A stretch of 29,335 nt of DNA from a virus (IMGVR_UViG_3300012663_000288:1-29335); one strand, 5' to 3'; positions 1 through 29,335 are shown, counted from the first letter of the stretch. Numbers and translations: made by a program. The notes: generated by a model not told the origin, from the sequence alone.

Positions 1-260
1 AAAGTAGAATGACCTAACGCAGTATTGTTAACTAAAGAGTTATTCCCTTTGCCAATTGTTAAACCTTGAACCTTTAAATCATAATTTCCCAAATCAACCG
101 CACCCGTTGCGCCGATGTACGGAACATTATTCAACAACGTACGGAATGCCGTTGCGGTTAATTTGAATGATGTTCCGGATGTTGGATCACCGATCAAAAT
201 CAAATCGGTTAACGCCGCGCCCGTCCTGGTATCTAATTGATTAATTTTTTTATTCGCCAT
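1..260 (-). CDS. Tail fibre / receptor-binding protein, N-terminal part (runs off the window)
   Basis: My translation from ATG at 260: MANKKINQLDTRTGAALTDLILIGDPTSGTSFKLTATAFRTLLNNVPYIGATGAVDLGNYDLKVQGLTIGKGNNSLVNNTALGHST. The MANKKINQL start, VPYxGATxxVDLG and NTALG motifs are typical of phage fibres. Overlaps the upstream stop; not in the ORF track. Confidence 0.75.
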   Translation of the reverse strand, partial: MANKKINQLDTRTGAALTDLILIGDPTSGTSFKLTATAFRTLLNNVPYIGATGAVDLGNYDLKVQGLTIGKGNNSLVNNTALGHST

Positions 261-1254
261 GAAATAATTTTGAATTATTATCGATTAAGAAATATTGATT
301 GTCGGCCCATAGCAAAAATTCATTTATGTCAACAACCGCTTGGCATTTGTTTGCATCAAAACGAACGCCAATTTCAACATTGATTGAAACGCCGGCGGTC
401 AAATCTTGCAATTGATAATCACGTATCGTTAAATCGTAATCCTCAGCAATGACCCATGAATGTTGGAAACCGAAATAATTCAACATCGCCAAAAAATCCA
501 TCGCAACGGATAACATATCGGATTTGATTTCGAATTCATTTTGTAGCGCGTTGTTTGCAATATCCATCAAATCAAAAAAATGAAACGTGAATGAATATTT
601 GCATAAACGATCCGTCAATGAAACAACCCCGGTTCGATCAAGTTCCGCGAAGCATGCCGGATAAACAACATCCGGGCCATCAAGGAATTCATCAAAATTC
701 CCAATGAAAAAATGATTGATTTGTTGATGTGATGTTGCCAATGCGCCGATCCTTGCCACCACTTGTTTCAATGTCAATGATGAATTCGCATATTCCGAAA
801 ATGAAAACGTTGTCGGAACTTGGCAACGATTCGCATCGAATTTGATTCCGATGGTTACATCAACGGAAACGCCACATGTTAAATCTTGTAATTCATAATC
901 GCGGATTGTCATGTTGTAATCATCGCCGATTTCCCAATCGGTATAATCTTGATCCTTTAACAATGCCAAATAATCCTGGGCCACGCTTGCCATGTCCGAT
1001 GTTACATCCCATACGTTTTCCAATGATCGGTTGGCGGTGTCCATCAAATCAAAAAAGTAAAACGTAAAATTCAAATTGGCCACGCGATTCGATAGCGATA
1101 TCGTTGAATCGGATTTCAATTCGCAAAATAACGCCGGATAGGTTACATCTTCATCATCCAAAAATTCATCGAATCCACCGATGAAAAAATGGTTAATTTG
1201 CCGATGGCTTTCCGCTAATTCCGTTAATCTTGATATGACTTGTTTTAACGTCAT
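250..1254 (-). CDS. Putative tail-completion/terminator-like structural protein with an internal tandem duplication
   Basis: 334 aa, acidic, two ~155-aa repeats (TLKQV..SH.QINHFFIG.FDEFLD..DV.YPA.F.EL). Lies between the adaptor-like and fibre genes; function inferred from position. Confidence 0.6.
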   Translation of the reverse strand: MTLKQVISRLTELAESHRQINHFFIGGFDEFLDDEDVTYPALFCELKSDSTISLSNRVANLNFTFYFFDLMDTANRSLENVWDVTSDMASVAQDYLALLKDQDYTDWEIGDDYNMTIRDYELQDLTCGVSVDVTIGIKFDANRCQVPTTFSFSEYANSSLTLKQVVARIGALATSHQQINHFFIGNFDEFLDGPDVVYPACFAELDRTGVVSLTDRLCKYSFTFHFFDLMDIANNALQNEFEIKSDMLSVAMDFLAMLNYFGFQHSWVIAEDYDLTIRDYQLQDLTAGVSINVEIGVRFDANKCQAVVDINEFLLWADNQYFLIDNNSKLFHGE

Positions 1255-1324
1255 TTATTTTTTCTTGTTGCGCTAAAAATAAACGCAATTTTTTTTCGTT
1301 TTTTTTCGATTTGTTTTTCGGCAT
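1193..1324 (-). CDS. Small basic hypothetical protein (43 aa)
   Basis: MPKNKSKKNEKKLRLFLAQQEKINDVKTSHIKINGISGKPSAN. ATG is 2 nt after the upstream stop and fills the intergenic gap. Confidence 0.45.
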   Translation of the reverse strand: MPKNKSKKNEKKLRLFLAQQEKINDVKTSHIKINGISGKPSAN

Positions 1325-1326
1325 CT

Positions 1327-1926
1327 TTAAATATAGTATGGATCATTCGAATTGTACCCGGCCGGCGGACGCTTATTCAACGAATAATCATCGCGCGGTA
1401 TTTCGGTTTCATCCCCCAAATATATTGGCGATGAATACGAAACGCGTTCCGGATGTACTACATCAACCCCCGAAACAAAATTCAAATATTCCGGAAAATA
1501 ATCATCGGCGTATTCAATCAAATAATTGCGCAACATTTTTGCGTAATGTTCCGCCCTCGATTTGTATTTCGCGACAATGGAATACATTTCCGACATGCTC
1601 GGTTGTGTTGCATTGTCCACTGTTTTTTGCGAAACGCCTTTATTCCAATATTGATAATTCAACCCTTCGGGTAATTCCGCCATTACATAATTGCAACAAC
1701 ATTCAACAATGTAATTGTCAACCAATGATTTGTAATTTCCGGCCAATGTATTCGTTGAAATGTCATTCAATATTTTATTGAACAAAGTTGATCCCAAAAT
1801 CGGCATGATGTACAAATCTTGAACCGCTTTGATTTCGGGATAAATCAATTTATCATCGATGTTATCATGCAATGACATGCGTTCCTTTATGACGGATGGT
1901 AAAATCAAATATGTTATTGTTGCCAT
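1327..1926 (-). CDS. Putative head-tail adaptor/connector protein
   Basis: 199 aa, predicted helical, directly downstream of the portal gene; AQD/VQDLYI.PILG..LF motif as in connector-like proteins. Confidence 0.55.
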   Translation of the reverse strand: MATITYLILPSVIKERMSLHDNIDDKLIYPEIKAVQDLYIMPILGSTLFNKILNDISTNTLAGNYKSLVDNYIVECCCNYVMAELPEGLNYQYWNKGVSQKTVDNATQPSMSEMYSIVAKYKSRAEHYAKMLRNYLIEYADDYFPEYLNFVSGVDVVHPERVSYSSPIYLGDETEIPRDDYSLNKRPPAGYNSNDPYYI

Positions 1927-1930
1927 TGTT

Positions 1931-3934
1931 TTATTTCTTTTTAATTACAACATGTTTCATCCACCCATGACGGCATTGGAATTCAATGGTTCCGTTGTTG
2001 TTCCAATATCCACCGGCGCGCTTGAAAACCGAATACCCCAAACGTTCCGAAAGTTTTTGAATATCTTGTCGGCTAAACATTCGCGATTTGCTTAACCCAA
2101 CCATTTTAACACAAAACGGCCTTGATGTTTTCAATAGTTCCGGCCCGGAAACGCCATCGCGTTTTTCATAGGTGTACATCACTTTAATTTCCGGTAATGT
2201 TCTTGCCGGTAACCTTTCCAATATTTTGCGGACGGGGATTCCGCCGACAATTTCGGCTTTGATTATTTCACGTTTAACAAGGTTCTCAACGATATCATCA
2301 ACAACGTTTGTATCGTATTTCAACGCCTCGGCGATTTGCACATTCGATAAATCCGGTTGTTTCTTTAACAACTCCATTATTTTGGCCTCCCTTTCGGTGA
2401 ATTCCGAAACCGCGGCGAATGACATTTTGAAATCATCATCATCCCCGGTGTAAACTTCGCTTTTTAATATGCTGAAATTTTCACGATTTTCCCCATATTC
2501 CGCAAACATGTCCGCGATGAATTCATCGGAATCATCCATGAATTGTTGATCCGCCATCATTGGGTTTTCATCTAATCCCAAATATTGATTGATTTGATCA
2601 TTGGTAAATCCGTATGCCGACAATTGAATTGATGCTTGGCCCTTTGTCAACTTACCCTGGCTGAACAAACGAACGATCCGCAAAAGGTTTTGTTGTTGCC
2701 TACCGGATAATTTTATCAATGCTTCATTGCCCATTTGTTCCGGCATCACGTTGTTTACGGCCGTTTTGATGCCGTATTTTGCCGGATCGATTCCGAACTT
2801 CTCAAGTATCCACTCCTTCGGTAAAAGTTCCTTAAATTGAACCGGATCAAGTTCCATGCCCACCGGCTCAACATCCTTCAAATGATATTCGGCATCAACA
2901 CCGGCAACCCCGGAAAAATACCCGACAATTTCCTCGATTTGTTTTTGCTTATGCGTTACATAGGTGTTTTTGAAAATCTCATAGGCCGTTTTCAATTCGC
3001 TTGAATTGCCCAACTTGCCCTCTTGTTGAATTCCAAAAAGTAACGGATGCGTGATATTATGGCCGCTAAAAATGTTATTCGTGATTAAATTATCAACCGC
3101 GCCGAAATCTTCCTTTGTTAAATCCGATGCTCCCAAATCATCAATTGTCGGTCGCTTTGTCGGATCATTGTTGAATCCGATTAAAACTTTTTTACCCTCG
3201 GCCCCGGTGGCGGCGTTTTCTAAACGCGCGGTGATTTTGCGCTTTTTATCTTCATCCGGTTCCCCGTTATAAAAATTTATGAATTTCGATGCGCTGAATC
3301 CGGTTTTCGCATTTGTTAACGTGTGCCTTGAAACCTCAATATCCGATTCAACCCAATTGCACGCCGCAACCCATGACGGCAACGCGTATGGGTTTTTGCC
3401 ACATCGGTATTCCTTAAAATAAAATATTGATGTTTTATTGTTCGATGGATTGAATGCCGGGTATTCCGCTTCGGGTTGTTCCCATGTATTGTTCCATTTT
3501 TTACGATAGTAAAAACATGTGTTATCCTCATTCGCGCGTATGCGATCGTATGACATGTGGTAAACATTGAATCCACCGGCCAATTTCGGGATGACCTGGA
3601 AATAAACACCACCAAAATTCTCAATGTCCAAACATGCCAATTTCATCAATTGATCCCATGATTGTTTTTCGTTGGCCTTTTGCAAAAATACCTTTCCGGG
3701 TTCGGAATCGGTTGTCAATCCATTACCTAAAATGTAAACACATTTCCCGTTGATGATGGCGTTGTGTTTTGCGGATTTGTTATACAACCACAATAAATAA
3801 GTTGGATAATCATTTCGATCGCCAAACGGAACGAAATCAACGCCACGCTTTTTTTCCATTAATGGAATGCGCGAATCGGCGAATTCCATCGCTCCAACCT
3901 CGATCATTTCATCATTTGTATTTTTAACCGGCAT
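1931..3934 (-). CDS. Portal protein with C-terminal extension (wHTH plus gpF-like Cys/His motif)
   Basis: FG.RNDYP.YL..LYNKSAKHNAII, DIENFGG, NIFSGHNITHPLLFGI and FKNTYV..KQ match the phage portal pattern. Start uncertain (3961, 3934 or 3907). Confidence 0.85.
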   Translation of the reverse strand: MPVKNTNDEMIEVGAMEFADSRIPLMEKKRGVDFVPFGDRNDYPTYLLWLYNKSAKHNAIINGKCVYILGNGLTTDSEPGKVFLQKANEKQSWDQLMKLACLDIENFGGVYFQVIPKLAGGFNVYHMSYDRIRANEDNTCFYYRKKWNNTWEQPEAEYPAFNPSNNKTSIFYFKEYRCGKNPYALPSWVAACNWVESDIEVSRHTLTNAKTGFSASKFINFYNGEPDEDKKRKITARLENAATGAEGKKVLIGFNNDPTKRPTIDDLGASDLTKEDFGAVDNLITNNIFSGHNITHPLLFGIQQEGKLGNSSELKTAYEIFKNTYVTHKQKQIEEIVGYFSGVAGVDAEYHLKDVEPVGMELDPVQFKELLPKEWILEKFGIDPAKYGIKTAVNNVMPEQMGNEALIKLSGRQQQNLLRIVRLFSQGKLTKGQASIQLSAYGFTNDQINQYLGLDENPMMADQQFMDDSDEFIADMFAEYGENRENFSILKSEVYTGDDDDFKMSFAAVSEFTEREAKIMELLKKQPDLSNVQIAEALKYDTNVVDDIVENLVKREIIKAEIVGGIPVRKILERLPARTLPEIKVMYTYEKRDGVSGPELLKTSRPFCVKMVGLSKSRMFSRQDIQKLSERLGYSVFKRAGGYWNNNGTIEFQCRHGWMKHVVIKKK

Positions 3935-4304
3935 AGCCTTTGTATATCGTTTCGGGTTCATAGCCTTGTTGTATTAAGTTTGCCGCCGGATTCAATAGCA
4001 TCTTGCCACATTCAACCAAATTCAACCCGGATGGATTCAAATTCGTTGAACTCGATTGCTCATAAACCTCATAGGAATATTGCCCGGCCTGGGCGGTTGC
4101 AAATAATGTAATTGTGTTAAACGTGTATATGTTGGCGCGTTCCGGATAACTTGATGTGTCGGACGCGGAATTTACAATGATTTTGTATTGAACTTTCGTT
4201 GATACATTCGTGAACACGAACAAATAATACGGATTGGGAATCGTTGTTGATTCATTCAACGTTACGATTGTGTCCGATTGTGTTCCGATTGTATAAACGA
4301 TCAT
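3924..4304 (-). CDS. Putative virion structural protein (beta-rich, head-closure-like)
   Basis: ORF 3924..4355. Start moved to ATG 4304 because the upstream part overlaps a terminator and the late-promoter motif. Contains GQYSYEVYEQ.S.TNL.P...VE.G. Confidence 0.55.
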   Translation of the reverse strand: MIVYTIGTQSDTIVTLNESTTIPNPYYLFVFTNVSTKVQYKIIVNSASDTSSYPERANIYTFNTITLFATAQAGQYSYEVYEQSSSTNLNPSGLNLVECGKMLLNPAANLIQQGYEPETIYKGYAG

Positions 4305-4310
4305 GTTATC

Positions 4311-4337
4311 ATGTGGCAAAAAACGTTCGTTTGTTGA
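4311..4337 (-). promoter_or_regulatory. Putative phage late promoter, copy 1
   Basis: TCAACAAAC-N10-TGCCACAT-N6-ATG, immediately after a terminator; same geometry as the copy at 14211. Confidence 0.7.
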
Positions 4338-4340
4338 AAT

Positions 4341-4370
4341 AAAAAAGGCCGCCAAATTAACGGCGGCCCC
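4341..4370 (-). terminator. Intrinsic terminator after the tail-tube-like gene
   Basis: GGCCGCCG-TTAAT-TTGGCGGCC followed by TTTTTT on the minus strand. Confidence 0.8.
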
Positions 4371-4402
4371 TCATGGAATCATGTGTAACCCACAACATGA
4401 AA

Positions 4403-4915
4403 TTATGTTAGCAATGTAGCCAGGGCGGTTGAATTTACTTCGTATGCAAGGTTTTTTTCATCGCCACTGAATGCCAATTCGTAACCATTACGATCGGCCA
4501 AAAGTTTGCCGGTCTTGTTTGCCGATGTGTCCAACATCAAACCATAATCGCGGCCATACATCCAACCGGTTCCGTTTTCATCAACGAAAACAAATATCAA
4601 TCGGTTTTGTGCCAACAACACCAATTCATTTCGAACGGATGCCGTCATTTTGTTGATCGGGAATTTAATCGTTTGCTTGTTAGTCAACGTTCCCATTTCG
4701 CGGTTTCCTGCATAGGCTTCATCGGCCTCGGCGGTGTGGGCGATCAAATTATATTTCTTGAATGTCTTTGTCGATGCTTTTGTAATCGCCGAAATAACGC
4801 CGGCGGATTCGGTAATCGCGGTAACGTTTTCGTATTCGATTACATAAATTTCCTTGATGCCCCCGAAATTGAATCGGCAGTCAAGGTTATATCCTTGGGT
4901 AAGTACGCAGGGCAT
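4403..4915 (-). CDS. Putative major tail (tube) protein
   Basis: 170 aa following the capsid gene; C......C....GGI..IY, VD.NG..W.YG and D.NGY.L.F.G.E motifs; followed by a terminator as expected for an abundant protein. Confidence 0.6.
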   Translation of the reverse strand: MPCVLTQGYNLDCRFNFGGIKEIYVIEYENVTAITESAGVISAITKASTKTFKKYNLIAHTAEADEAYAGNREMGTLTNKQTIKFPINKMTASVRNELVLLAQNRLIFVFVDENGTGWMYGRDYGLMLDTSANKTGKLLADRNGYELAFSGDEKNLAYEVNSTALATLLT

Positions 4916-4934
4916 ATTTGTAGTATTTTAAATT

Positions 4935-4959
4935 AGGGCCGGATAATATGTCCGGCCCT
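4935..4959 (-). other. GC-rich stem-loop after the capsid gene (stability element or partial terminator)
   Basis: AGGGCCGGA-N7-TCCGGCCCT perfect 9-bp stem; weak U-tract. Confidence 0.55.
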
Positions 4960-4970
4960 TATTGAATCAT

Positions 4971-5969
4971 TTATCCAAGATACAACACATTGTTAGCCTG
5001 GCGCGCAACGTGTGCGGCGATGGTGAAAATGTGTTTCACGAACATATCTTCACGATTGTTTGCAATCTTGTTGATTTCCATGCGATTGATATCGGCAACA
5101 AGATCGGTACACCAAATCAAATTTGATGGCAACGCGGCAACGATACAATTTTCGGGAACGGGAACGAATTTGATTTCGATTCCGTTGTAGAAATATTTAT
5201 CGGCCTTAATGTCAACGCTGAACAAATCGCGATATGTTGCACTAACATTGAAAATGTTAATGAACTGCTTATGCGAATATGGCGCGTACAAATACGGCTT
5301 TTCGGTTTGTGCCAAAACAACGGCCGGGATTGCGGCGTAAACTTTTGCATATTCGGCGGCAACATCACCGGCATCAATTGTGGTTCCGGCAACTTTAACG
5401 CGTGTTCCCAATGCGCCATTGTTGTATATCATCTTCGCAACAACACCATCAAATTGTGTGGCGGTTTGCGCTGCGGCCCATGTTTGTTCGGCGGCTCCAA
5501 CTGAACCCTGGCCGGTTCCCGGTGTCAACGCTGCGATAGCGGTTTTTGTTGCGGCGGTAATACCACTCCACCATTTTGTTTCGGCATCGGTTGAAATTTC
5601 TTTTCCGTATGCGGCCAAAACAACGCGTTCGAATTCGGTGGACATCATTTCCCATGCGCCCGGCTTCATTGACCTTTTGAACCTTGAAGGCCTCAATGTG
5701 TTGGGATCGAATTCTTGATAGTACATTACTTTGGTCGGTGTAACCGATGTATCATTCAAGGTGATCGTTCCCTGGCTTGTTGGTGCGCCGGATGCAAACG
5801 CTTGCAATGTTACCGCGTTTGTATTTTCGGTGAAAATACTTTCGTTTTTAACATCGCTTTCGAATGAAACCAAATTGTCTGCAATGGTTTTGTTTTCGAA
5901 TAAAAGTTCCTCCAATACCGGCTCGTATGCCTTACCGCGTATATCAACGATACTTGCTGAAATTGCCAT
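4971..5969 (-). CDS. Major capsid protein
   Basis: 332 aa in the order protease-scaffold-capsid; size and C-terminal pattern compatible with an HK97 fold. Confidence 0.75.
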   Translation of the reverse strand: MAISASIVDIRGKAYEPVLEELLFENKTIADNLVSFESDVKNESIFTENTNAVTLQAFASGAPTSQGTITLNDTSVTPTKVMYYQEFDPNTLRPSRFKRSMKPGAWEMMSTEFERVVLAAYGKEISTDAETKWWSGITAATKTAIAALTPGTGQGSVGAAEQTWAAAQTATQFDGVVAKMIYNNGALGTRVKVAGTTIDAGDVAAEYAKVYAAIPAVVLAQTEKPYLYAPYSHKQFINIFNVSATYRDLFSVDIKADKYFYNGIEIKFVPVPENCIVAALPSNLIWCTDLVADINRMEINKIANNREDMFVKHIFTIAAHVARQANNVLYLG

Positions 5970-5970
5970 T

Positions 5971-6147
5971 TTATTTTGTTTTAGATTTTGAAATTTTCTT
6001 TTCGGTTTCTACTTCCTCGATTTGATCCGGGAACCTTTTTTGCAAATGCTCCAATTGTTCTTGGCTCAAATTCGATTCCGATGTGAACGGGTTTGATGCC
6101 GGGCCGTATGCCCAAATTTCAATCCCATCTTTTATTTTTAATGCCAT
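5971..6147 (-). CDS. Small hypothetical protein (58 aa) between scaffold and capsid genes
   Basis: MALKIKDGIEIWAYGPASNPFTSESNLSQEQLEHLQKRFPDQIEEVETEKKISKSKTK exactly fills the gap; below the ORF-track cutoff. Confidence 0.7.
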   Translation of the reverse strand: MALKIKDGIEIWAYGPASNPFTSESNLSQEQLEHLQKRFPDQIEEVETEKKISKSKTK

Positions 6148-6150
6148 TTA

Positions 6151-6702
6151 TTAAAAGTTTTTTGATGCGCGGAATTTTTCCAATGCCGACATTTCATCAA
6201 ACGATTTCACCTTTTCGGTGGGTTGTTGAACGGATGTATTCGCGATGGTTTCCACCAAAGAAAACATTTGTTTCAATGTTTCCGCTTGTTTGTCGATTGT
6301 GTTTTTTTGCTCGGCAATGGTTTGCTTCAATTGTGCGATGTCGGTTTTCGCGGCCGCGAAACCTTGTTGGAAATCGCTAAACATTCCGGGTAGTTTTTTC
6401 ATCGCTTCAACTTCAACCTCAACAACGGGCGCAACTTCGGGTTGCTTTACTTCGGTAATCAATCCGCCGGCAACAACAATTTTTGAACCATCTTCGAATT
6501 CATGTTCGCCATCCGGTGCCGGTTCGCCGTTCAATGTAACCGATCCGCCAATTTCCAACTTATCGATGGAAACAACCGCGCCGGATTTCAATTTGTATTC
6601 CATGAACTTTTGCGGTTCCGCCGGAACCGGTGTTGCCAATTGTTTTTCCATATCGCCAAAAACCATATTTCTTATTTTTTCAACTGCTTCCTTTGGTGTC
6701 AT
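6151..6702 (-). CDS. Putative capsid scaffolding protein
   Basis: PAPDGEHEFEDG..IVV..G.ITE motif plus C-terminal coiled coil; upstream of the capsid gene. ATG 6702 preferred over TTG 6729. Confidence 0.7.
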   Translation of the reverse strand: MTPKEAVEKIRNMVFGDMEKQLATPVPAEPQKFMEYKLKSGAVVSIDKLEIGGSVTLNGEPAPDGEHEFEDGSKIVVAGGLITEVKQPEVAPVVEVEVEAMKKLPGMFSDFQQGFAAAKTDIAQLKQTIAEQKNTIDKQAETLKQMFSLVETIANTSVQQPTEKVKSFDEMSALEKFRASKNF

Positions 6703-6747
6703 GTGATTATTCTTTTTTGTTTGTGGCAAAATTTAAAAGGTTGTTGA
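6701..6747 (-). promoter_or_regulatory. Putative phage late promoter, copy 2 (with a possible tandem second unit)
   Basis: TCAACAACC-N10-TGCCACAA (6721-6747), overlapped by GCCACAAAC-N10-AATCACAT (6701-6727). Confidence 0.6.
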
Positions 6748-7989: not shown

Positions 7990-8007
7990 TTATATTATTT
8001 TTTTGTT

Positions 8008-20754: not shown

Positions 20755-20757
20755 TGT

Positions 20758-20961: not shown

Positions 20962-20971
20962 ATTATTTTTT

Positions 20972-21142: not shown

Positions 21143-21240
21143 TGTTTATTTTTTATTTTTGAGTTGTTTCCATTATGGAAATAGGTTAAAAAATGAGCCA
21201 GGGTAGAAACCCCGGCCCGTTCACAATTAAAAACAAATAT

Positions 21241-21513: not shown

Positions 21514-21556
21514 AAAATTGTCGGGTATAGGGAGCCGATGCCTTTAAAAGTTGATA

Positions 21557-22411
21557 TTATGATTTTTTAAATACTAAAATATTTTGGTGAACCTTTACAA
21601 GTTTTTGACTTTTCATGTTTCCATTTGCGCGCATACTTGCGCTTGCAATTGTATTCAATAAAATACCTTCATTGTAAAATTTCATGCCTGACTTTTGAAA
21701 TGCCCTTATTGTGTCCGGAACGAATCCAATGTAATCGCCTTTTTTATCCCTTACTTCGCCGACTACAAAACAAGCATATCCGCCGGATTTTAAAAGTTTG
21801 CAACTTTTTTGAATTATGCTTTCGTAAAGTTCTAAAAATTGATTGTATGGCTTATTGCTTATATCGCCATCCAAATCACTATAAACTTCCAAATCCGCGT
21901 ATGGTGGGCAACTAAATACCATATCAAATTTTGTTTGCCATGTATCATTTAAAATGATATTACTATCGCCAACGTACCATTGCGGTTGATTATCCATCGG
22001 CAAAATATCCAACGCTTGATCCCGGTTTGAATCAATTTGTTCCTTCCTAATATCAATTCCGGTGTATTTATAACCCAAATAATTGGCAACAACGCCACGA
22101 ACGGAACCCCCGGCAAATGGATCTAAAATTGAACCACCGGGAACACAAAACCAATTGTATAAAACTTCGCACAATGCCGGATCGAAAACGCTAACATATT
22201 CCGTTTGATTTTTTTCAACGGCCATCGTTCCCATGTTTATCACTTTTGAATCGCGCCCGACTTCGCTCTTTATTCCTTTTGCAATCCATAATTTTTTACG
22301 CCTTTGCCAATTCCCGGACTTTGTGTCCAATACCGAAAACGGGGGTTCGATAAAACGATCGCGTAAAATTTCATCCTTTATGATTTCGTTTCCAAACAAA
22401 TCTAAATTCAT
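21557..22411 (-). CDS. Orphan amino-DNA methyltransferase (N4-C or N6-A)
   Basis: Motif I ILDPFAGGSVRG, GIDIR, motif IV FSCPPY, HQNILVF; no cognate endonuclease recognisable. Confidence 0.85.
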   Translation of the reverse strand: MNLDLFGNEIIKDEILRDRFIEPPFSVLDTKSGNWQRRKKLWIAKGIKSEVGRDSKVINMGTMAVEKNQTEYVSVFDPALCEVLYNWFCVPGGSILDPFAGGSVRGVVANYLGYKYTGIDIRKEQIDSNRDQALDILPMDNQPQWYVGDSNIILNDTWQTKFDMVFSCPPYADLEVYSDLDGDISNKPYNQFLELYESIIQKSCKLLKSGGYACFVVGEVRDKKGDYIGFVPDTIRAFQKSGMKFYNEGILLNTIASASMRANGNMKSQKLVKVHQNILVFKKS

Positions 22412-22971
22412 ATCGCGATATTTTCAGGAATTCCGTATTTCAAAATTTGCCGTTCCCAAAATTCGGGCGATTGCCGGATCAACGCCTTTTCGGTATTTAG
22501 CGTTTTCGGACATACCCGAATGATGATCCCGGTTGGCGTATTGGTTGCCAAACAATACCCGGTTAATTGATTGCCATATCCGAAATGATCAATTGATTTG
22601 CCCAATGGCATTTCCGAAACCTTTAAATCAACAATCAATCGGCCGGGGCGAATCAAATCAATACGGCCTTTGTATTGCATCGACAACCCGGCATGTTCCA
22701 TGTTACATGTTACCGATACTTCGGATTGCATGTGTTTAACCAATTCGCCGATTTGGAACAATAATACCCGGGCAATGGGAACAACCAATTCCCGATTGGC
22801 CCCGTTGTATTTTTCCGGTTCCAAAATGTAATTGTGAACGGCGGTTCCCAACATCATTTTTTTAGTGGGTACGAAATCGCCGTTTTTGATTCCGGAATAG
22901 GAAAGGCCGGGCAATGCGCGGTATTGGTCAAAATCCAAACCGGGATGAACTTTCAATCTTGTTACTTGCAT
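22408..22971 (-). CDS. RecE/ExoVIII-like PD-(D/E)XK exonuclease (DUF3799-like)
   Basis: LSYSGIK, LGTAVH..ILEP, KGRIDL, DLK and Y..QL..Y motifs. Confidence 0.8.
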   Translation of the reverse strand: MQVTRLKVHPGLDFDQYRALPGLSYSGIKNGDFVPTKKMMLGTAVHNYILEPEKYNGANRELVVPIARVLLFQIGELVKHMQSEVSVTCNMEHAGLSMQYKGRIDLIRPGRLIVDLKVSEMPLGKSIDHFGYGNQLTGYCLATNTPTGIIIRVCPKTLNTEKALIRQSPEFWERQILKYGIPENIAI

Positions 22972-24002
22972 GTTTCAATCGTTTCAATGCCAGGGATTAC
23001 ATTTCCGGTTTCGTTGATATGCTTTGCCAACGCATCCGCCATTTGTCCGATGGTTAACTTTGTCCATGATTTTACACGAACGTATTGGTTAACATAGGGC
23101 CACAACCGAATGAAATTCGAAACGATTGTTTTTGCCCATTGCTCGGTTTCCTCCGCCTTGATTTTGATTTCCTTTTTTACTTTGGGCGTTTCAACGATCA
23201 ACGTTTCGGCTTCGGCAATCAACGCGTTGGTTGCGGTTTCGAATTCCAAATCCATTTCAAACGCCATTTCGGCGATTTGTTTATGCTTTTCGATGGATTC
23301 GATGGCAACATCAACATTGGCCAAATCATTGGAATAGGTTGACCAAATTACGGAAATGTTTTTAATTGCCGTTTGTAAATCATCCGCCGGATTGTATTTT
23401 TCAATCGAATCATAGATTTCTTTTGCCAATCCATCGGAAATCAATTTCCGGTCGAACTTTTGAAATTCCGGTAATTTCCAATCGTTCAAAATACGTTTCA
23501 TGTCTTGAACCATCGCCGGGATGGAATGCGTTGGATGTTTTTCTTTTAGGCAATTGGAATAGGATTCCAATGTAATGCGTTCAAGTTCATGGCGATATTG
23601 CGCCGCAATCCGGAACCATTCGTTCACAATGTGCGCCTTCAACGCCGCCGTTTCATTGGCGATGGCTTGTTGTTTTTGGGCGTTTTCGGCGGCTTGTTTG
23701 CGCATTTCCAATTCGATGGCGGCGGCTTGCTCGATTTGTTCCGCCATGCGTTTTTCGAATGCCGTTGCCGGCGTGATCAATTTATCATCAATCATGCGCG
23801 TAAATTCCAAACGTTTGGATTTCGCATCCGCCATGACTTGTTTTGCCGATTTGATATTGTGTTGAACAACATCAAGGGGGTTGCCCTCGATGCCATTCAT
23901 GTAATCTTGAACGGCCAATTCGGCGCGTTGTAATTCATCGAACAATGATGTTTTAATGTCGGCTAATTTTAACCAACCATTTTGAACCGGTGTCAAATTC
24001 AT
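22962..24002 (-). CDS. Coiled-coil hypothetical protein of the recombination module
   Basis: 346 aa, helical; between the SSAP and exonuclease genes, overlapping both. Confidence 0.7.
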   Translation of the reverse strand: MNLTPVQNGWLKLADIKTSLFDELQRAELAVQDYMNGIEGNPLDVVQHNIKSAKQVMADAKSKRLEFTRMIDDKLITPATAFEKRMAEQIEQAAAIELEMRKQAAENAQKQQAIANETAALKAHIVNEWFRIAAQYRHELERITLESYSNCLKEKHPTHSIPAMVQDMKRILNDWKLPEFQKFDRKLISDGLAKEIYDSIEKYNPADDLQTAIKNISVIWSTYSNDLANVDVAIESIEKHKQIAEMAFEMDLEFETATNALIAEAETLIVETPKVKKEIKIKAEETEQWAKTIVSNFIRLWPYVNQYVRVKSWTKLTIGQMADALAKHINETGNVIPGIETIETCK

Positions 24003-24715
24003 AAAATAAAGTTTTCTTTGTTTTTATATTCCCTGGCAACATCAAGTTGCAGGCGTTGGCCATCGGTCAATTCAACGTTTTCAATCGCCCATTCCCACAA
24101 TGTCAATTCGGAACCGGTTGCCATTTGTCCGGCTTCAATACTGGCGCAAAGTTTTTCGAATTGTTCCGGTGTCAACGATCGTTTTGTTGACTTCGGCGTT
24201 TCGATAACTTCGGCGGTCGTTTCTTCGGTTACGGATTCCATTTCTTCGGGAACGTAAACCGGATTTTCGTAAATGTCGGGCGTGTACCATTTAACGCCGT
24301 TTGACATGGCCCGGGCGAATAACATGTTTTTTGGGAATTTGTCCAGGTTTTTGGTTCCGGCTTTTTTGGCATCATCAATGGTGAATGTTGAAACGCCCAG
24401 GGATTGCAACCCATTAGCCGGCAACTTGGCAAAATATTCAATTGAACAAATTTTATCCGAATGTTCCAAAACTTTGTAATCGTACTTTCCAAATCCCTTA
24501 ACCCTTGCCGCCATTAATCCGGCCCCGATGGTTGGTTTTCCTTGAATGATATGGATTCCCGACATGGCCGCGAATGGTGAAATTCCCATTTCGGCCCCGG
24601 CCATGATTTTCACAACGGCTTGTTGCGCCGATTTAATGTCGGAAAACATTCCCGACTTGAAAAACGTTTCGCCGATTGTTAGCGCATCGGCCGCGCTTTT
24701 TACGATTTGATTCAT
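23999..24715 (-). CDS. Single-strand annealing protein (RecT/Red-beta-like)
   Basis: KIMAG.E.G..P..AM..IHII.GKP, FT..DAK.AG and P..ML.ARA...V....PD motifs. Confidence 0.75.
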   Translation of the reverse strand: MNQIVKSAADALTIGETFFKSGMFSDIKSAQQAVVKIMAGAEMGISPFAAMSGIHIIQGKPTIGAGLMAARVKGFGKYDYKVLEHSDKICSIEYFAKLPANGLQSLGVSTFTIDDAKKAGTKNLDKFPKNMLFARAMSNGVKWYTPDIYENPVYVPEEMESVTEETTAEVIETPKSTKRSLTPEQFEKLCASIEAGQMATGSELTLWEWAIENVELTDGQRLQLDVAREYKNKENFIL

Positions 24716-24728
24716 GTTGTGGGTTTTT

Positions 24729-24890
24729 TTATGATTCCAATGATGGGATGATCAACGCCTTTACGGCCTTTGTAAGTGATCCGTATTTTTTAACGATTGC
24801 TTTCTTATCGGCATCCTTTAAATAGGCCGATACCAATTTCGCGTGTTGATCGGCCGGAATTTTCTTTCGACCTGGTTTTAATTTTTCCAT
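24729..24890 (-). CDS. Small basic DNA-binding protein (possible RHH/Cro-like regulator)
   Basis: MEKLKPGRKKIP....KLVSAYL...DKKAIVKKYGSLTKAVK; first gene after the leftward promoter. Confidence 0.55.
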   Translation of the reverse strand: MEKLKPGRKKIPADQHAKLVSAYLKDADKKAIVKKYGSLTKAVKALIIPSLES

Positions 24891-24914
24891 GTGTTTTGAT
24901 TTTTTGATTTGATG

Positions 24915-24922
24915 CAAATATA
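24915..24922 (-). promoter_or_regulatory. Leftward early promoter, -7 element
   Basis: TATATTTG (TAnnTTTG) about 25 nt upstream of ATG 24890; no clear -33 TTTG. Confidence 0.6.
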
Positions 24923-24970
24923 GGGAATATTTGATATAAAAAATAAAATAAAAAATATTTTTAAAAATGT

Positions 24971-25000
24971 TTTGTAATATGGTTTTTTAGTTTATCTTTG
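24971..25000 (+). promoter_or_regulatory. Rightward early promoter
   Basis: TTTG-N18-TATCTTTG; downstream leader ACAATCAAAAACAAATAACATG resembles the cassette A leader. Confidence 0.75.
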
Positions 25001-25024
25001 AATTCACAATCAAAAACAAATAAC

Positions 25025-25240
25025 ATGGCAACTGCAAAAACAAACATTTGGAATTTAAAAATTGGCGATGTCATCACCTTTACAAGTTTATCTGGTTACA
25101 AAACTTTTTTGAATGTATATAGGGTTGAGGAAAAAAGTTGGTATGGTGGGAAAGGCCAAGTTAATGCCAGAAATAGTTATGGAACTTTGGAAAAACTTTC
25201 GAAATTGCCCGGCTTTCAAATCATCAGAAAATCAAAATAA
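25025..25240 (+). CDS. Early hypothetical protein (71 aa)
   Basis: MATAKTNIWNLKIGDVITF...; first gene after the rightward promoter; atypical composition. Confidence 0.75.
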   Translation: MATAKTNIWNLKIGDVITFTSLSGYKTFLNVYRVEEKSWYGGKGQVNARNSYGTLEKLSKLPGFQIIRKSK

Positions 25241-25248
25241 ATCACCTC

Positions 25249-25269
25249 GGGGCCGGCAATACCGGCCCC
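25249..25269 (+). other. GC-rich stem-loop after the first early gene
   Basis: GGGGCCGG-CAATA-CCGGCCCC, no U-tract. Confidence 0.55.
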
Positions 25270-25284
25270 ATAACATCAAATCAA

Positions 25285-25458
25285 ATGCAAAAGTTCATTT
25301 CAACCTACATCGCCGAATTCATCGCCGGAATCGAAATCACAAAATCAAAACCGGCGAAATGCGATTGTGGCGAAACCTACACATTGGTAACTGATAACGA
25401 TGAATACATCGTTTGCGATTCATGTTCCGATTTTTATAATTCAAAAAATGTCAAATAA
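25285..25458 (+). CDS. Small zinc-ribbon protein (57 aa)
   Basis: MQKFISTYIAEFIAGIEITKSKPAKCDCGETYTLVTDNDEYIVCDSCSDFYNSKNVK; TAATG coupling to the next ORF. Confidence 0.65.
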   Translation: MQKFISTYIAEFIAGIEITKSKPAKCDCGETYTLVTDNDEYIVCDSCSDFYNSKNVK

Positions 25459-25544
25459 TGAAAAATAAAACAATTCTAACATGGGCCATCATCATCACAT
25501 TGCTTTACATTGTCGGACAACTCCAGGATCAATGGTGCCGGTAA
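25458..25544 (+). CDS. Membrane micropeptide (28 aa)
   Basis: MKNKTILTWAIIITLLYIVGQLQDQWCR. Confidence 0.55.
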   Translation: MKNKTILTWAIIITLLYIVGQLQDQWCR

Positions 25545-25681
25545 CGCCTTATGAAATATGGCAAATGGAACGATATGGAAATTTTATTTCCGAATCGAAC
25601 CCAACGCCACCGGAACCAAGCAAAACATTTTTTGAATATCAAATTGAAATTTATGAATTTAATGAAGTACATAATCAATGA
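25532..25681 (+). CDS. Small acidic hypothetical protein (49 aa)
   Basis: MVPVTPYEIWQMERYGNFI...; internal ATG of ORF 25481..25681. Confidence 0.55.
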   Translation: MVPVTPYEIWQMERYGNFISESNPTPPEPSKTFFEYQIEIYEFNEVHNQ

Positions 25682-25862
25682 AAATGGGCCGGTTTTATTC
25701 CCGGAAAAAACATTTGTTCAAGTGCCTGGCGAAATCCAATCATCCGGATATTGTTCGTTTTGGTATAGTCCAGAAACGCAACGTTTCGAATGCTTTACCA
25801 CCCCGGAACCAACCGCAACCCCGAATGATTACGTTATCATTGAAAACTTTTTAAATGGCTAA
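25662..25862 (+). CDS. Hypothetical protein (66 aa)
   Basis: MKYIINENGPVLFPE...SSGYC; internal ATG of ORF 25551..25862. Confidence 0.6.
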   Translation: MKYIINENGPVLFPEKTFVQVPGEIQSSGYCSFWYSPETQRFECFTTPEPTATPNDYVIIENFLNG

Positions 25863-25971
25863 AATCGTAGCAATATGGATTCGGTGCCGTTCGTGCCGAT
25901 CCCTTTACACCATCTCACATTTAAAACAAAGTATATGCCCGAAATGTCATGCCATAAATGGCCCGAAATGA
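25855..25971 (+). CDS. Tiny zinc-ribbon protein (38 aa)
   Basis: MAKIVAIWIRCRSCRSLYTISHLKQSICPKCHAINGPK; CxxC-13-CPKC; ATGA coupling downstream. Confidence 0.6.
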   Translation: MAKIVAIWIRCRSCRSLYTISHLKQSICPKCHAINGPK

Positions 25972-26135
25972 ACACAATTGAACGCCATCGTTTAATTGGC
26001 GAACTGATTGACGCGATGATATATTCCGAAAACGCGGTAGCGATTCTCAAGGATTGCGTTGAAGGTTTCCGGGCCGCCGGATACATTAAATCCATAATTT
26101 TACCGGATAATAAAACGCTTGAAAATGGTATCTAA
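25968..26135 (+). CDS. Hypothetical protein (55 aa)
   Basis: MNTIERHRLIGELIDAMIYSE...; starts at an ATGA overlap. Confidence 0.6.
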   Translation: MNTIERHRLIGELIDAMIYSENAVAILKDCVEGFRAAGYIKSIILPDNKTLENGI

Positions 26136-26460
26136 TTTCATTACTTCAATCCATCATTTGCGCATCGCCACCGAATACATGGATGATATTGTACGGCAAT
26201 ATCCCGGTTCCCGTTCATGCGTTTTGTTTCAAAACTATTCCAAAAAATGCAAATGGATATTGCGCGATATTGCCACCTATCCACATTTTACCGATGAAAT
26301 CCGGGATGGCATCCAATCGGAAATAAATTCCGATCCGCTAACATACCGCGCCATCATGGAACGCATTTCATTGCTTGCCCCGGATCAACGCAATTTGTTG
26401 GAATTCGTGATTGATGATCTATTGAATGGTAAACAAATCAAAATTCAAGTCGATGAATAA
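26125..26460 (+). CDS. Hypothetical helical protein (111 aa)
   Basis: ORF track 26119..26460; ATG at 26125. Confidence 0.75.
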   Translation: MVSNFITSIHHLRIATEYMDDIVRQYPGSRSCVLFQNYSKKCKWILRDIATYPHFTDEIRDGIQSEINSDPLTYRAIMERISLLAPDQRNLLEFVIDDLLNGKQIKIQVDE

Positions 26461-26536
26461 CCGCCAATTTCAACATGGTTTCATTACCGGCTTTCTTGCC
26501 GCGATGATTGCAATTTTAATAATTGGATTGATATGA
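26453..26536 (+). CDS. Membrane micropeptide (27 aa)
   Basis: MNNRQFQHGFITGFLAAMIAILIIGLI; overlaps both neighbours. Confidence 0.55.
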   Translation: MNNRQFQHGFITGFLAAMIAILIIGLI

Positions 26537-26655
26537 AAAAAAACATTGAATTAATTGTGCAAGTTATTTTCTTTTTTGTCATCGCGATACCAACCGCCAT
26601 TTGTTTCTATATCGCCAATGAAATATTTTTCATCTTCAAAAGATTGTTCAAATGA
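26533..26655 (+). CDS. Small membrane protein (40 aa)
   Basis: MKKNIELIVQVIFFFVIAIPTAICFYIANEIFFIFKRLFK; ATGA overlaps at both ends. Confidence 0.65.
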   Translation: MKKNIELIVQVIFFFVIAIPTAICFYIANEIFFIFKRLFK

Positions 26656-26861
26656 AAATAACTCATTCAATCCAGGAATACATTGAGAAAAACGAAATCC
26701 GGAAAAACGTTCGATGGCGTATTCATGGCGGCCGATGGTTTTTTGAATTGTTCCCCGGATTTTGGCAACACGAACATTCGTTTGATCGGTTTTTCCCTAA
26801 ATACGATTTCGCCCGGTTCAATGATAAGGGATCAAACCCGGACAAAACGAAAATTGTATGA
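26652..26861 (+). CDS. Hypothetical protein (69 aa, aromatic-rich)
   Basis: ATGA overlaps at both ends. Confidence 0.7.
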   Translation: MKITHSIQEYIEKNEIRKNVRWRIHGGRWFFELFPGFWQHEHSFDRFFPKYDFARFNDKGSNPDKTKIV

Positions 26862-27070
26862 AAAAATATGTGTTGCGGTGCCGGACAATGGCCGGGAATA
26901 CTTTGTTTTTTTGCCATCAATACGTTGCCGGATCGAAACAAAACGTTTTCGTTTCGAATATCAACCAGGCCTTAATATACTATGAATACCAAATCGGAAC
27001 CGCGGAAATTGAATTACTTAAACTCATGTCAAATTATGGAATCAAATCCTACACAATTGAAATTTTGTAA
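26858..27070 (+). CDS. Hypothetical protein (70 aa)
   Basis: ATGA overlap with the upstream ORF. Confidence 0.6.
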   Translation: MKKYVLRCRTMAGNTLFFCHQYVAGSKQNVFVSNINQALIYYEYQIGTAEIELLKLMSNYGIKSYTIEIL

Positions 27071-27221
27071 ATATTGCAAGGAAACCAAATCACGCGATTT
27101 GTTCCCGGTTAACATCATGCTCAATGATCACCGGGAAAACAAATGTAAAAAATGCCGATCCGAATATGATAAAATGAAACGCGCTAAACGGAACGCGGAT
27201 AGGGAAATATCACATTTTTAG
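27036..27221 (+). CDS. Stand-alone Cys4 zinc-finger protein (61 aa)
   Basis: MESNPTQLKFCKYCKETKSRDLFPVNIMLNDHRENKCKKCRSEYDKMKR...; CxxC-22-CxxC; converges on the endolysin gene with a 4-nt stop overlap. Confidence 0.65.
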   Translation: MESNPTQLKFCKYCKETKSRDLFPVNIMLNDHRENKCKKCRSEYDKMKRAKRNADREISHF

Positions 27222-27682
27222 TAATTGGAATAAATGGTTTTCCCGTTTACCCTTGACGCGCGCAATATTTGTTTGCGTTGCTTACCGGTTGTTTCATACG
27301 AAACGTGAACCCAATCCGGATTTTGTGCATCCCCGAATTCATAAATCAATTGATCAAATATTAGGCTATCCTTGATGTAATCAAAAACCATGCGATTGGT
27401 AACGCCATGTGGCGTGCCGTCCATGTCAATGTCGATGGCCTCACCCGAACAATGTTGTGATGTTGCGGAACCCCCAATCGCGGCGTTTAATTCCTTTGAA
27501 CGATATCCGGATGAAATAATAATCGGACAACGGAAATGGGTTCGTATTGGTTCAAATATAGCCTCGGCCAATATTTTAAAATTGTTGATGTGTTCCGGCG
27601 TTGGCATGTTTGAAATTCCTTTGCGCTTTGCGGATTCCGACCGGGTTACTTCGGCCAAATCTAAATGTTCGGATAATTTCAT
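27218..27682 (-). CDS. Endolysin, peptidase M15A family
   Basis: ISSGYRS..LN.AIGGS..SQH..GEAIDID...WVHVSY (zinc ligands H, D, H). Confidence 0.92.
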   Translation of the reverse strand: MKLSEHLDLAEVTRSESAKRKGISNMPTPEHINNFKILAEAIFEPIRTHFRCPIIISSGYRSKELNAAIGGSATSQHCSGEAIDIDMDGTPHGVTNRMVFDYIKDSLIFDQLIYEFGDAQNPDWVHVSYETTGKQRKQILRASRVNGKTIYSNY

Positions 27683-28170
27683 TTTTTAAGTTTTAGATAA
27701 ATAAACCCGGCAATCGCCAGAATTAAAATAATTAGCCATCCGGCGCGCCTTTCGGCCTTTCGTTCCCATTCCATTGCCTTCGCATTTGATGCCGTTAAAT
27801 CGGCTTGTATTAAGTTTAAACGGGCATTGTCAACAACAACGGATTTGATTGTATCGTGAATGGTAATGGATTTGACAATATCGCGATATTTCAACCGGGT
27901 TAAAAACGTTGTATCGTTCCGGGTTTCAATTTGTATCGTTGTATCATTTTGAACCAATGTGTCGACCTGGATAGTTGTATCGGATTTCACAATGTACGTT
28001 GTATCATTGGCGCAATAACCCCCGGCAACCACAACCTTCGCAACGGCATCAAGTTTGTTTTGATCGCGCAAAACTTGTTTCACCGGATTACATGATAGCA
28101 ACCACAACAACGTAAACAACAAAATCAAAACCAATAAAACGACATTGATCGGATCAACTTTGATTTTCAT
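27679..28170 (-). CDS. Lipoprotein with C-terminal TM segment; unimolecular-spanin-like
   Basis: Signal peptide plus lipobox LLSC; C-terminal WLIILILAIAGFIYL followed by KLKK. Confidence 0.65.
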   Translation of the reverse strand: MKIKVDPINVVLLVLILLFTLLWLLSCNPVKQVLRDQNKLDAVAKVVVAGGYCANDTTYIVKSDTTIQVDTLVQNDTTIQIETRNDTTFLTRLKYRDIVKSITIHDTIKSVVVDNARLNLIQADLTASNAKAMEWERKAERRAGWLIILILAIAGFIYLKLKK

Positions 28171-28396
28171 TGGTCGGCTTTTTAAATATCTTTTCCGCGG
28201 ATGTTAATCCCAACGCCGCGAATGCCAATGATGCTACCGAATAAACAAGCGCCTCCGATGGATCGGTTTGTTCCGTATGATTGGCGTATAATGTCCAACA
28301 TAGGAACCCGGCGCACATTACCCCCACCAAACGTTTTGATGATGCCTGGCCGTTTTCCGAAACAAAACCCGATAAAAAATTAATTGCCTTTTTCAT
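28154..28396 (-). CDS. Putative holin (2 TM)
   Basis: 80 aa, SSKR followed by two hydrophobic helices and a charged C-terminus; in the lysis cassette. Confidence 0.65.
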   Translation of the reverse strand: MKKAINFLSGFVSENGQASSKRLVGVMCAGFLCWTLYANHTEQTDPSEALVYSVASLAFAALGLTSAEKIFKKPTNENQS

Positions 28397-28712
28397 ATTC
28401 GGTTGAATCTATTGATTGAATGGAATCGGTTGTTGTGCGTTTCCGGCCCCAAAAATTGGTTTTTTCTTTTATGATAATCGTATCATGAATGATGATCGTT
28501 TTCACCTTTAACGCCTTGAATGCGCGCAAATCCTTTGCGTTTTGTTGTTCCTTGACATGAATAAAATGATCAACTTTTGTGATCAAATTCGGTATGGTGT
28601 CCGTCCTGGAAATTGATTTTTGCAATAATGTATCAACATGATCAACAACAATGGTTGATTGTTGTTTCATTTCACATGCCACAAATAACACTATGCAAAA
28701 AATGTATTTCAT
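28380..28712 (-). CDS. Putative lipoprotein (o-spanin-like)
   Basis: MKYIFCIVLFVAC: short signal peptide ending in a lipobox-like FVAC. Confidence 0.5.
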   Translation of the reverse strand: MKYIFCIVLFVACEMKQQSTIVVDHVDTLLQKSISRTDTIPNLITKVDHFIHVKEQQNAKDLRAFKALKVKTIIIHDTIIIKEKTNFWGRKRTTTDSIQSIDSTEYEKGN

Positions 28713-28972
28713 TTGATGGCTCCCATTTCCTTTAATGTCAAAAGTTTGGCGGTTGTGGCGGCCAACAACGAATCGGAACGTTTAAGTTGAACCGATAACG
28801 CATCGATTTTCAATTCAAGGTTTTCAATTTTCGCGCCTTGCTTTTCGATTTGTTCCGTATACATTAATTTTTGATCAATGTATAAATAACCGATGGCAAA
28901 CAAGGTGATGAATAAAAACGCCTTTACCGGATCTTTGCTAAATTGCTCAAATGACAAAGGAAATGCCTTCAT
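28709..28972 (-). CDS. Single-TM coiled-coil protein (i-spanin- or holin-like)
   Basis: AFLFITLFAIGYLYI followed by a heptad coiled coil. Confidence 0.55.
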   Translation of the reverse strand: MKAFPLSFEQFSKDPVKAFLFITLFAIGYLYIDQKLMYTEQIEKQGAKIENLELKIDALSVQLKRSDSLLAATTAKLLTLKEMGAIK

Positions 28973-28996
28973 AACACATAAAGTATTTATACGGAT

Positions 28997-29023
28997 TTGT
29001 GGCGAAAAATACTTAATTGTTGC
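28997..29023 (-). promoter_or_regulatory. Putative phage late promoter, copy 4 (lysis operon)
   Basis: GCAACAATT-N10-CGCCACAA, immediately after a terminator. Confidence 0.6.
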
Positions 29024-29027
29024 AATT

Positions 29028-29066
29028 AAAAAACAACACCATCCCGGGAATGAAATGGTGTTATTG
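29028..29066 (-). terminator. Intrinsic terminator upstream of the lysis operon
   Basis: RNA stem AAUAACACCAUUUC/GGGAUGGUGUUGUU (with G-U pairs) followed by Us. Confidence 0.65.
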
Positions 29067-29071
29067 TTTTT

Positions 29072-29200
29072 TTAATCTTCGGATTTTTCCTCTTGCATTT
29101 TTTGCGCAATCTTTTGATTAACCTCTTGCAATTGTTTTTGCAAATATTCCAAATTGCTTAAAATGTCATAGGCCTGGGCCTTCAGTTCGATTAATTCCAT
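29072..29200 (-). CDS. Small coiled-coil protein (42 aa)
   Basis: MELIELKAQAYDILSNLEYLQKQLQEVNQKIAQKMQEEKSED. Confidence 0.65.
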   Translation of the reverse strand: MELIELKAQAYDILSNLEYLQKQLQEVNQKIAQKMQEEKSED

Positions 29201-29213
29201 GTTGTTTAATTTT

Positions 29214-29335
29214 TTACAAAATTACTAAATTTAATTTATCCGCTGACCATTGATATATCCATGCATTTATTGCCATTGCAGGTTGGTCTCCCCATGCAAC
29301 GTATTCCTCGCCAGAAATCGTGAGATTGCCTTGAG
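29214..29335 (-). CDS. C-terminal part of a hypothetical protein, possibly tail-fibre-associated
   Basis: ...QGNLTISGEEYVAWGDQPAMAINAWIYQWSADKLNLVIL*; open to the window edge. Confidence 0.6.
   Translation of the reverse strand, partial: QGNLTISGEEYVAWGDQPAMAINAWIYQWSADKLNLVIL

Follow-up and report, generated by a model that had tools for sequence, protein, structure and literature searches.

Bacteriophages avoid mainly the sites of orthodox type II enzymes (PMC6286503, Rusinov et al. 2018), and several described systems read other short words in DNA. Metagenomic phosphorothioate sequencing (PT-seq) gave the motifs C*AG and C*CGG (PMC11931770), while bacteriophage exclusion (BREX) type 4 is associated with NCTC in Bacteroides salyersiae and with GAAG/GACG in a putative Butyricimonas faecalis (PMC12914056, where Parabacteroides isolates are reported to carry CpsA and the anti-phage activity of BREX type 4 variants is said to await investigation). 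Type I BREX, IIL, ISP and III systems use asymmetric N6-methyladenine (m6A) motifs such as GGTAAG or CAGCAG (PMC11842806, PMC12707154), the GGTAAG-reading type I BREX being retargetable (PMC11842806), and the restriction-modification-associated defence island system (DISARM) is reported to be repressed by 5-methylcytosine (5mC) marks rather than triggered by sites (PMC9142583). Here we analyzed the virus record IMGVR_UViG_3300012663_000288:1-29335 (G000; hereafter the window, i.e. the whole 29,335-base stretch), a tailed-phage genome in which the dinucleotide AG/CT is strongly depleted. In the literature covered (which lacks most subscription papers and supplements) we found no description of phages purged of AG/CT, and no dinucleotide reader is named in the accessible part of a review of DNA-targeting defences (PMC12904381). 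The deficit works like restriction-site avoidance, in that words probably read by host defences are removed and the window has zeros at type II-like words, but it is not confined to recognised words: the two-base core is low in nearly all contexts and reaches a plateau near 0.3, and the window's clade shows one exempt context and a target that switches between sister lineages. Three layers can be distinguished, namely a clade-wide AG/CT purge, a loss of CAG on the window branch, and ordinary zeros at type II-like sites.

Within the window (1..29335) AG/CT occurs 1078 times versus 3539 expected (observed/expected ratio 0.30), evenly along the contig (18-54 AG+CT per kb). CAG/CTG (hereafter CWG) is the rarest trinucleotide (0.13), next to GAG (0.18), TAG (0.20) and AAG (0.61). 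The original prediction, based on a rough hand tally, described a genome-wide purge of CWG that spares CCWGG, and the exact count agrees with it: 93 sites (37 CAG, 56 CTG) were found versus 715.5 (in round terms 716) expected from base composition, and after dinucleotide correction the deficit is 93 versus 239 (0.39). The 36 sites lying in CCWGG (225..29177; first site at 225, last at 29173) hold 39% of the remaining CWG and stand near chance (1.21), whereas the other 57 stand at 0.08, so that the claimed depletion of more than 10-fold outside CCWGG is borne out; nine of the ten CCWGG positions then quoted were exact (3594 becomes 3595). By codon positions 1-2, 2-3 and 3-1, the ratios were 0.36, 0.42 and 0.35 for AG and 0.33, 0.11 and 0.17 for CT. 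In the 42 called genes CWG occurs 80 times, as compared to 359 +/- 13 under synonymous-codon shuffling and 715 +/- 22 in controls preserving the proteins alone (CCWGG: 31, versus 18.5 and 31.8, respectively); the deficit thus persists under the codon-shuffled control, and codon or amino-acid usage does not explain it. Furthermore, the window holds 5.2 times as much CCGG as expected, a single AGCT and no CTAG. The deficit is real and is independent of strand, codon position and mutation class.

The substitution record, for which we counted synonymous third-position changes with unchanged flanks, indicates how this composition is maintained. Over 448 short branches (3959 changes), the rate of AG/CT-creating relative to AG-neutral changes was 0.26, 0.37, 0.32, 0.29, 0.26 and 0.57 in the six mutation classes, versus 0.71-2.07 in non-purged kin (126 branches, 1561 changes). 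By the triplet method (115 gene pairs), AG was created 426 times versus 1344 expected (0.32) and lost 192 times versus 118 (1.62); the 35 pairs with at least 95% identity gave 47 creations versus 123, and the 18 non-purged control pairs 127 versus 124. AG creation was suppressed in 60 of the 61 NNAGN contexts with at least five expected events (CCAGG being the sole exception), AG-creating transversions were suppressed as strongly as transitions, and the AGY share of serine codons fell from 0.36 to 0.15-0.16, which is a two-step switch. Taken together, this all-class suppression of AG creation points to selection, and not to deamination, Vsr repair or codon bias; the ratio near 0.3 would correspond to weak selection per site.

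The window was compared with 15 long records, hand-picked from terminase and structural-protein matches to span the patterns (the frequencies are therefore not those of a sample). Seven of these 16 genomes (G000-G005 and G011) are AG-poor (0.30-0.53), with CCWGG at 1.2-7.3 times and CCGG at 2.8-7.7 times expectation. Among them CAG varies from 0.13 to 1.10, while TAG (0.14-0.29) and GAG (0.18-0.42) stay low, and therefore the shared target is AG/CT and not CAG; the earlier proposal of host selection on a CAG-containing motif is thus supported as to long-term selection and not supported as to the motif. Both the terminase and the portal tree place G005 and G011 away from the main AG-poor clade, so that the trait has either two origins or an intervening loss. 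Across the 16 genomes no gene was found to be confined to the AG-poor ones. Hard zeros also vary by lineage: ACAGG is absent from G000, G003 and G004 but occurs 80 times in G005, and CCAGA occurs 0-6 times in six genomes but 119 times in G004. Moreover, G005 avoids CG words (ACG 0.33, CGA 0.36, TCGA 0.06, CGCG and GCGC 0), and both G005 and G011 do so with the exception of CCGG (6.3-7.7-fold), CCGGC being 10-13-fold over-represented.

Kin with 75-90% protein identity have CA/TG or GAG/CTC purged in place of AG/CT. CA/TG is low in G006 (0.47; 85-89% identical to the window in terminase and structural protein), G015 (0.52) and G014 (0.55), and six of the 16 genomes show neither pattern. In the CA-poor sisters G006, G015 and L477 (~85% terminase identity; CA/TG 0.47-0.52, TA 1.3, CG 1.5), G006 is smoothly CA-poor (55 of 64 NCANN contexts below 0.7 of controls, four near zero); in CA-poor kin CA/TG creation is suppressed as well (24 versus 90; eight pairs, triplet method). 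GAG/CTC is nearly gone (0.02-0.09) in G014, L383 and L388, in G014 and L383 over all 16 NGAGN contexts (at most 0.28), and this speaks for genuine three-base targets within this host range; G014 (GAG 0.02) additionally shows CA 0.55, GGA 0.14, TCA 0.16 and CCWGG at 4.2-fold. Via the endolysin, methyltransferase and primase 130 loci were reached; the 107 that measured 7 kb or more (overlapping and not independent) contained eight AG-poor loci, six CA-poor ones and five with GAG at or below 0.25. The six CA-poor loci (L364, L368, L370, L375, L378 and L394; 0.48-0.56) have the endolysin alone in common with G006 in the compared stretch and are a patchwork of zero and normal pentamers (zeros at CCAGA, CCAGG, CCAGT, TCAGA, TCAGG, TCACC and NCATG), and therefore unions of words can mimic a dinucleotide purge. 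As side observations, L018-L021 carry an AG-poor terminase (0.33) with AG at 0.59-0.80 overall and lower GC content, which suggests a mosaic or chimeric contig, and the Flavobacterium prophage loci L199-L208 have GAG at 0.22-0.59 and GATC near zero in nine of ten (L206 being a non-Flavobacterium record).

The purge of CAG and the escape of CCWGG, joined in the original prediction, belong to different layers. Within the clade, CCAGG was created 27 times versus 12.5 expected, as compared to 160 versus 582 for other CAG, and glutamine codons standing between C and G are CAG in 25 of 26 cases in G003 and in all 29 in G005 and G011, versus 7 of 27 in non-purged kin; CCGG was gained 43 times versus 27 and lost 64 times versus 92. 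The inner C of CCWGG is the base methylated by Dcm-type enzymes. As read from the sequence, this inner C supplies the C of CT and lies opposite the G of AG, and masking by its methylation is plausible. On the window branch the picture differs: in 24 matched genes CWG numbers 46 in the window versus 128 in G001 and 108 in G002 (GAG, TAG and AAG are little changed), and the window lacks 17 of the 28 CCWGG and 28 of the 41 other CWG common to these two genomes. Against seven outgroups, window-branch loss (in small counts) was 54-83% for CCWGG (5/8 to 5/6), 33-80% for other CWG and 17-27% for AAG. Loss on the window branch hits CCWGG and other CWG equally often, so that CCWGG is spared by the purge only in part; the claimed sparing therefore holds for the clade-wide layer and not for the window-branch loss. 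Seeing that CCWGG accounts for 7 of the 17 window-specific CWG gains, the older advantage would persist while a newer CAG pressure cuts all CWG.

The third layer consists of words that are absent or nearly so in the window (both-strand counts: ACNGT 2/128, CCCGC 1/60, CGWCG 0/116, GGWCC 0/69, GTSAC 0/53; furthermore GASTC, AGCT, CTAG and CCATGG), which we take to be sites of type II enzymes. These words follow the orthodox pattern of type II avoidance, and this holds for the third layer alone: with near-zero pentamers removed, AG in the window still amounts to 0.44 of what non-purged kin have (164 hexamer contexts; 0.44-0.67 of control level over the window and its kin), and therefore the deficit is not confined to recognised words.

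We consider it somewhat likelier than a coin toss (a probability of roughly 0.55) that AG/CT is fixed about threefold less often through host DNA-reading defences with short AG-core targets, from which CCWGG is likely masked. Host defences would select against AG/CT in the phage lineage through targets of 3-5 bases that may differ between host strains and over time while having the AG/CT core in common. Each AG would bear a small cost, as a target of one host strain or another may be completed by it, and such a cost explains a plateau near 0.3-0.5 instead of zero. Host cytosine methylation likely masks CCWGG at its inner C, the window branch probably came under a CAG-reading system not blocked by CCWGG, and the loss of ACNGT, CCCGC, CGWCG, GGWCC, GTSAC, AGCT and CTAG is probably due to ordinary type II enzymes. 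Speaking for these host defences, a sporadically present methyltransferase gene is already purged, and the zeros vary by lineage.

Several observations weigh against this reading. TAG/CTA, the most constant part of the deficit, is matched by no known short target, and the host searches pinned down no host or defence locus (in the candidate host family a BrxP profile was matched in 0/251 genomes at E<=1e-40 and DndC in 4/251 genomes; ssp was not searched). The AG-poor signature is confined to close kin (8/107 loci), so that convergence is shown for CA and GAG, and for AG weakly (by the placement of G005 and G011). Candidate-host chromosomes, too, have an excess of CCWGG and CCGG (medians 1.71 and 1.89), and shielding may thus not account for all of the excess. 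Parsimony gives only approximations for phages that recombine, and the branches are not independent; a conversion process favouring the non-AG allele would yield the same substitution pattern. Finally, Rusinov et al. found that phages rarely avoid type III sites and do not avoid those of type I or IIG (PMC6286503), so that a union of such motifs is not what is usually seen.

As a more speculative extension, to which we give a limited chance, Bacteroidota hosts may carry an undescribed family of retargetable defences that read two to three bases (AG/CT, CA/TG, GAG, CAG), are graded in cost per site and are blinded by cytosine methylation. If true, such readers rewrite the dinucleotide make-up of whole phage genomes within ~15% protein divergence, and the signatures would serve as labels of the defence type of the host. 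Apart from this extension, closely related phages were here driven in different directions at the two-to-three-base level, where known avoidance concerns mostly 4-6-base type II sites. The footprint predicts targets (AG/CT with the CCWGG exception, CAG, CA and GAG) for host methylome or phosphorothioate mapping, and could give natural evidence on the targets of short-motif systems (e.g. BREX type 4) or point to a new system. Moreover, k-mer host prediction can fail for such phages, as their composition departs from that of the candidate hosts.

Among the competing explanations, we hold it unlikely that one undescribed host system reads bare AG/CT in a graded, density-dependent manner, is blocked by C methylation and has variants reading CA or GAG; a loose nickase, a glycosylase or a backbone-modification system would be the candidates. 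Such a reader would fit the suppression in 60 of 61 contexts with its lone exception where the C of CT would be methylated, the diffuse 0.44 left without zero words, the smooth CA deficit of G006 and the avoidance of CG words except CCGG in G005 and G011; however, the NNAGN context ratios span 0 to ~1, zeros vary by lineage, the six CA-poor loci are a patchwork, and the host would need protection for AG sites in its own DNA by the hundreds of thousands. A neutral process is improbable in our estimation: in recombination heteroduplexes, mismatch repair or gene conversion biased towards the non-AG/CT allele would make creation rarer and loss commoner in several mutation classes, and the phage carries a RecT-like gene (23999..24715, - strand; an annealing protein that bears on this alternative only), but RecT homologues also occur in the non-AG-poor G006 and G007, and the lineage-specific hard zeros are left unexplained. 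To our knowledge, known patch-repair systems correct one mismatch type only, whereas all six mutation classes are affected here. A single CAG-reading defence, blocked by CCWGG methylation, is largely refuted as the sole cause and now seems very improbable. It accounts for CAG being the rarest trinucleotide and for the drop relative to the two closest genomes, but not for GAG, TAG and AAG at 0.18, 0.20 and 0.61, nor for the loss of ancestral CCWGG (17/28) like that of other CWG (28/41), nor for G005, in which a CAG ratio of 1.10 goes with the strongest CCWGG excess.

Mutation pressure, either as C-to-T deamination at CT or as Dcm/Vsr-type T-to-C repair, is refuted as the main cause, and we leave it a very slim chance overall, with a minor part in the CCWGG/CCGG excess being possible. 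The footprint of Dcm/Vsr very-short-patch repair is a decrease in CTAG and an increase in CCWGG; the window resembles it in both (CTAG absent, CCWGG and CCGG raised), and Vsr is found in 18/53 candidate-host genomes. Loss of CT to TT is up 1.4-2.0-fold, but other losses are raised as well. On the other hand, T-to-C change at CT is not raised (CT-to-CC 27 versus 33 per 1000; triplet ratio 0.74-0.85), and therefore Vsr-type repair is not the main cause. Hypermutation predicts normal creation, whereas 0.32-0.38 was found over all classes, transversions included, and among the lost CCWGG sites the deamination product is not in excess (6/17 versus 11/28). Ultraviolet pyrimidine dimers were rejected separately (TT enriched, 1.41; TC normal, 0.96). 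Least weight of all is given to codon or amino-acid usage or a phage enzyme (a primase start site or the phage's own methyltransferase) as the source of the bias. In its favour, CTG/CTA or GTC is read by primases of the bacterial and T7 types, and a methyltransferase-like gene is present in the window; yet the deficit extends across codon junctions (codon-shuffled control: AG 289 versus 751, CT 77 versus 432) and into the 2271 non-coding bases (0.35), the AG-poor genomes use two different replication modules, each of which also occurs in non-AG-poor genomes, and the methyltransferase is missing from three complete AG-poor genomes. The phage methyltransferase and primase were thus rejected as causes, neither tracking the AG-poor trait.

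Set beside the described systems, the preferred reading of host defences with short AG-core targets finds partial parallels. The original prediction regarded a 3-bp-scale target with a methylation-defined escape as unusual; 3-4-base targets are already known for phosphorothioate systems (PMC11931770, PMC12914056). Phosphorothioate and BREX type 4 systems fit in target length, BREX type 4 hosts are Bacteroidota, the GAG/CTC purge of G014, L383 and L388 matches the NCTC motif, and CAG, GAG/CTC, GAAG (creation 16 versus 100) and GACG (0.23) are all low here, as are most AG words; they differ in that TAG is not among the motifs, GGACG is near normal in the window (0.77), and no such locus could be tied to a host, BrxP and DndC being as rare in the candidate host family as given above. 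The motifs of type I BREX, IIL, ISP and III systems may end in AG, specificity is readily altered and site density governs restriction by IIL systems (PMC11842806, PMC12707154), but the example motifs have six bases and no avoidance of IIG sites by phages was found (PMC6286503). Damping of DISARM by 5mC could favour the gain of CCWGG and CCGG, but DISARM predicts no AG deficit. Two further candidates for a CAG reader were dropped: for Dpd (7-deazaguanine), in the accessible text of PMC10164549 'CAG/CTG' denotes the PvuII site and CxGCxG is proposed as the motif, and for Druantia, type I gives CAGCTGNC m6A (10.1101/2024.04.14.589459), nothing in favour came from PMC12458937 and no supporting paper was found. 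CCWGG is not mentioned in the accessible part of a lake metaepigenome paper (PMC6329791).

The host of the window lineage is likely a member of the Bacteroidota (family not established), judging from protein similarity: genome records, many of them under Flavobacteriales or Chitinophagales titles, contain terminase relatives at 34-64%, the nearest cultured matches are Flavobacterium phages (terminase ~50%) and Cellulophaga phage phi46:1 (53%), and endolysin matches of 69-76% lie in G019 and G020. A DNA search of 401 genomes gave no close prophage (the four short hits checked had no CRISPR, i.e. clustered regularly interspaced short palindromic repeat, array), and a single-protein genome scan gave no match; matches in sequencing runs had shares of 0.14 at most and were left out of account, for habitat as well, and further homologue and family comparisons gave no clue to the host. 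Of 72 candidate-host chromosome stretches fetched, 59 were kept after dropping ten under 7 kb and three phage-like contigs; they lack the purge (AG 0.76-1.05, CAG 0.88-1.86), in agreement with the original prediction, which the same bias in host chromosomes would have refuted, and share some of the CCWGG/CCGG excess (medians: CCWGG 1.71, CCGG 1.89, CTAG 0.13). C5 methyltransferases were found in 25/53 candidate-host genomes, and the CCWGG excess showed no link by eye (no formal test) with the presence of Vsr or C5 methyltransferases. In the family of G019, many of the chromosomes L233-L292 have CTAG near zero, with CCGG up to 5.6-fold and CCWGG up to 3.4-fold, and the CCGG/CCWGG excess with lack of CTAG also occurs where no C5 methyltransferase or Vsr was found (e.g. 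G027). L463:4546-10923 (G148) holds a DndC-like PAPS-reductase gene near a PDC-S73 gene and a KwaB gene, with no recognised dnd or brx neighbour among the eight proteins scanned.

The main genes of the window lie on the - strand. The portal gene (1931..3961; AG 0.32) was used for the tree and substitution counts, and the terminase large subunit (14933..16129; AG 0.26) is ~50% identical to Flavobacterium phage terminases. A virion structural protein (4971..5969), 53% identical to Cellulophaga phage phi46:1 gp03, may be the major capsid protein by its gene position. The primase-helicase (17813..19570) is present in three of the seven AG-poor genomes and in one non-purged genome, and therefore the trait is not tracked by this gene. 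The N6/N4-type DNA methyltransferase-like gene (21557..22411) has a full-length homologue in 0/15 related genomes (no match in 13, weak partial matches in two non-purged ones) and is already purged (AG 0.41, one CWG), as compared to 0.80-1.03 and 9-11 CWG in five homologues from other phages. The peptidase M15 endolysin (27218..27682) offered a route to phages with possibly related hosts, with 69-76% matches in G019 and G020, two contigs of G019 among them. No tRNA genes were found in the window; its complete relatives measure 32-34 kb. Two small accessory genes (20500-20961) are less purged (AG 0.59; 7 CWG in 462 bases), which suggests recent acquisition. At 250-1254 (- strand) the window encodes a 334-aa protein with seemingly two similar halves, where G003 and G004 carry a 174-aa form.

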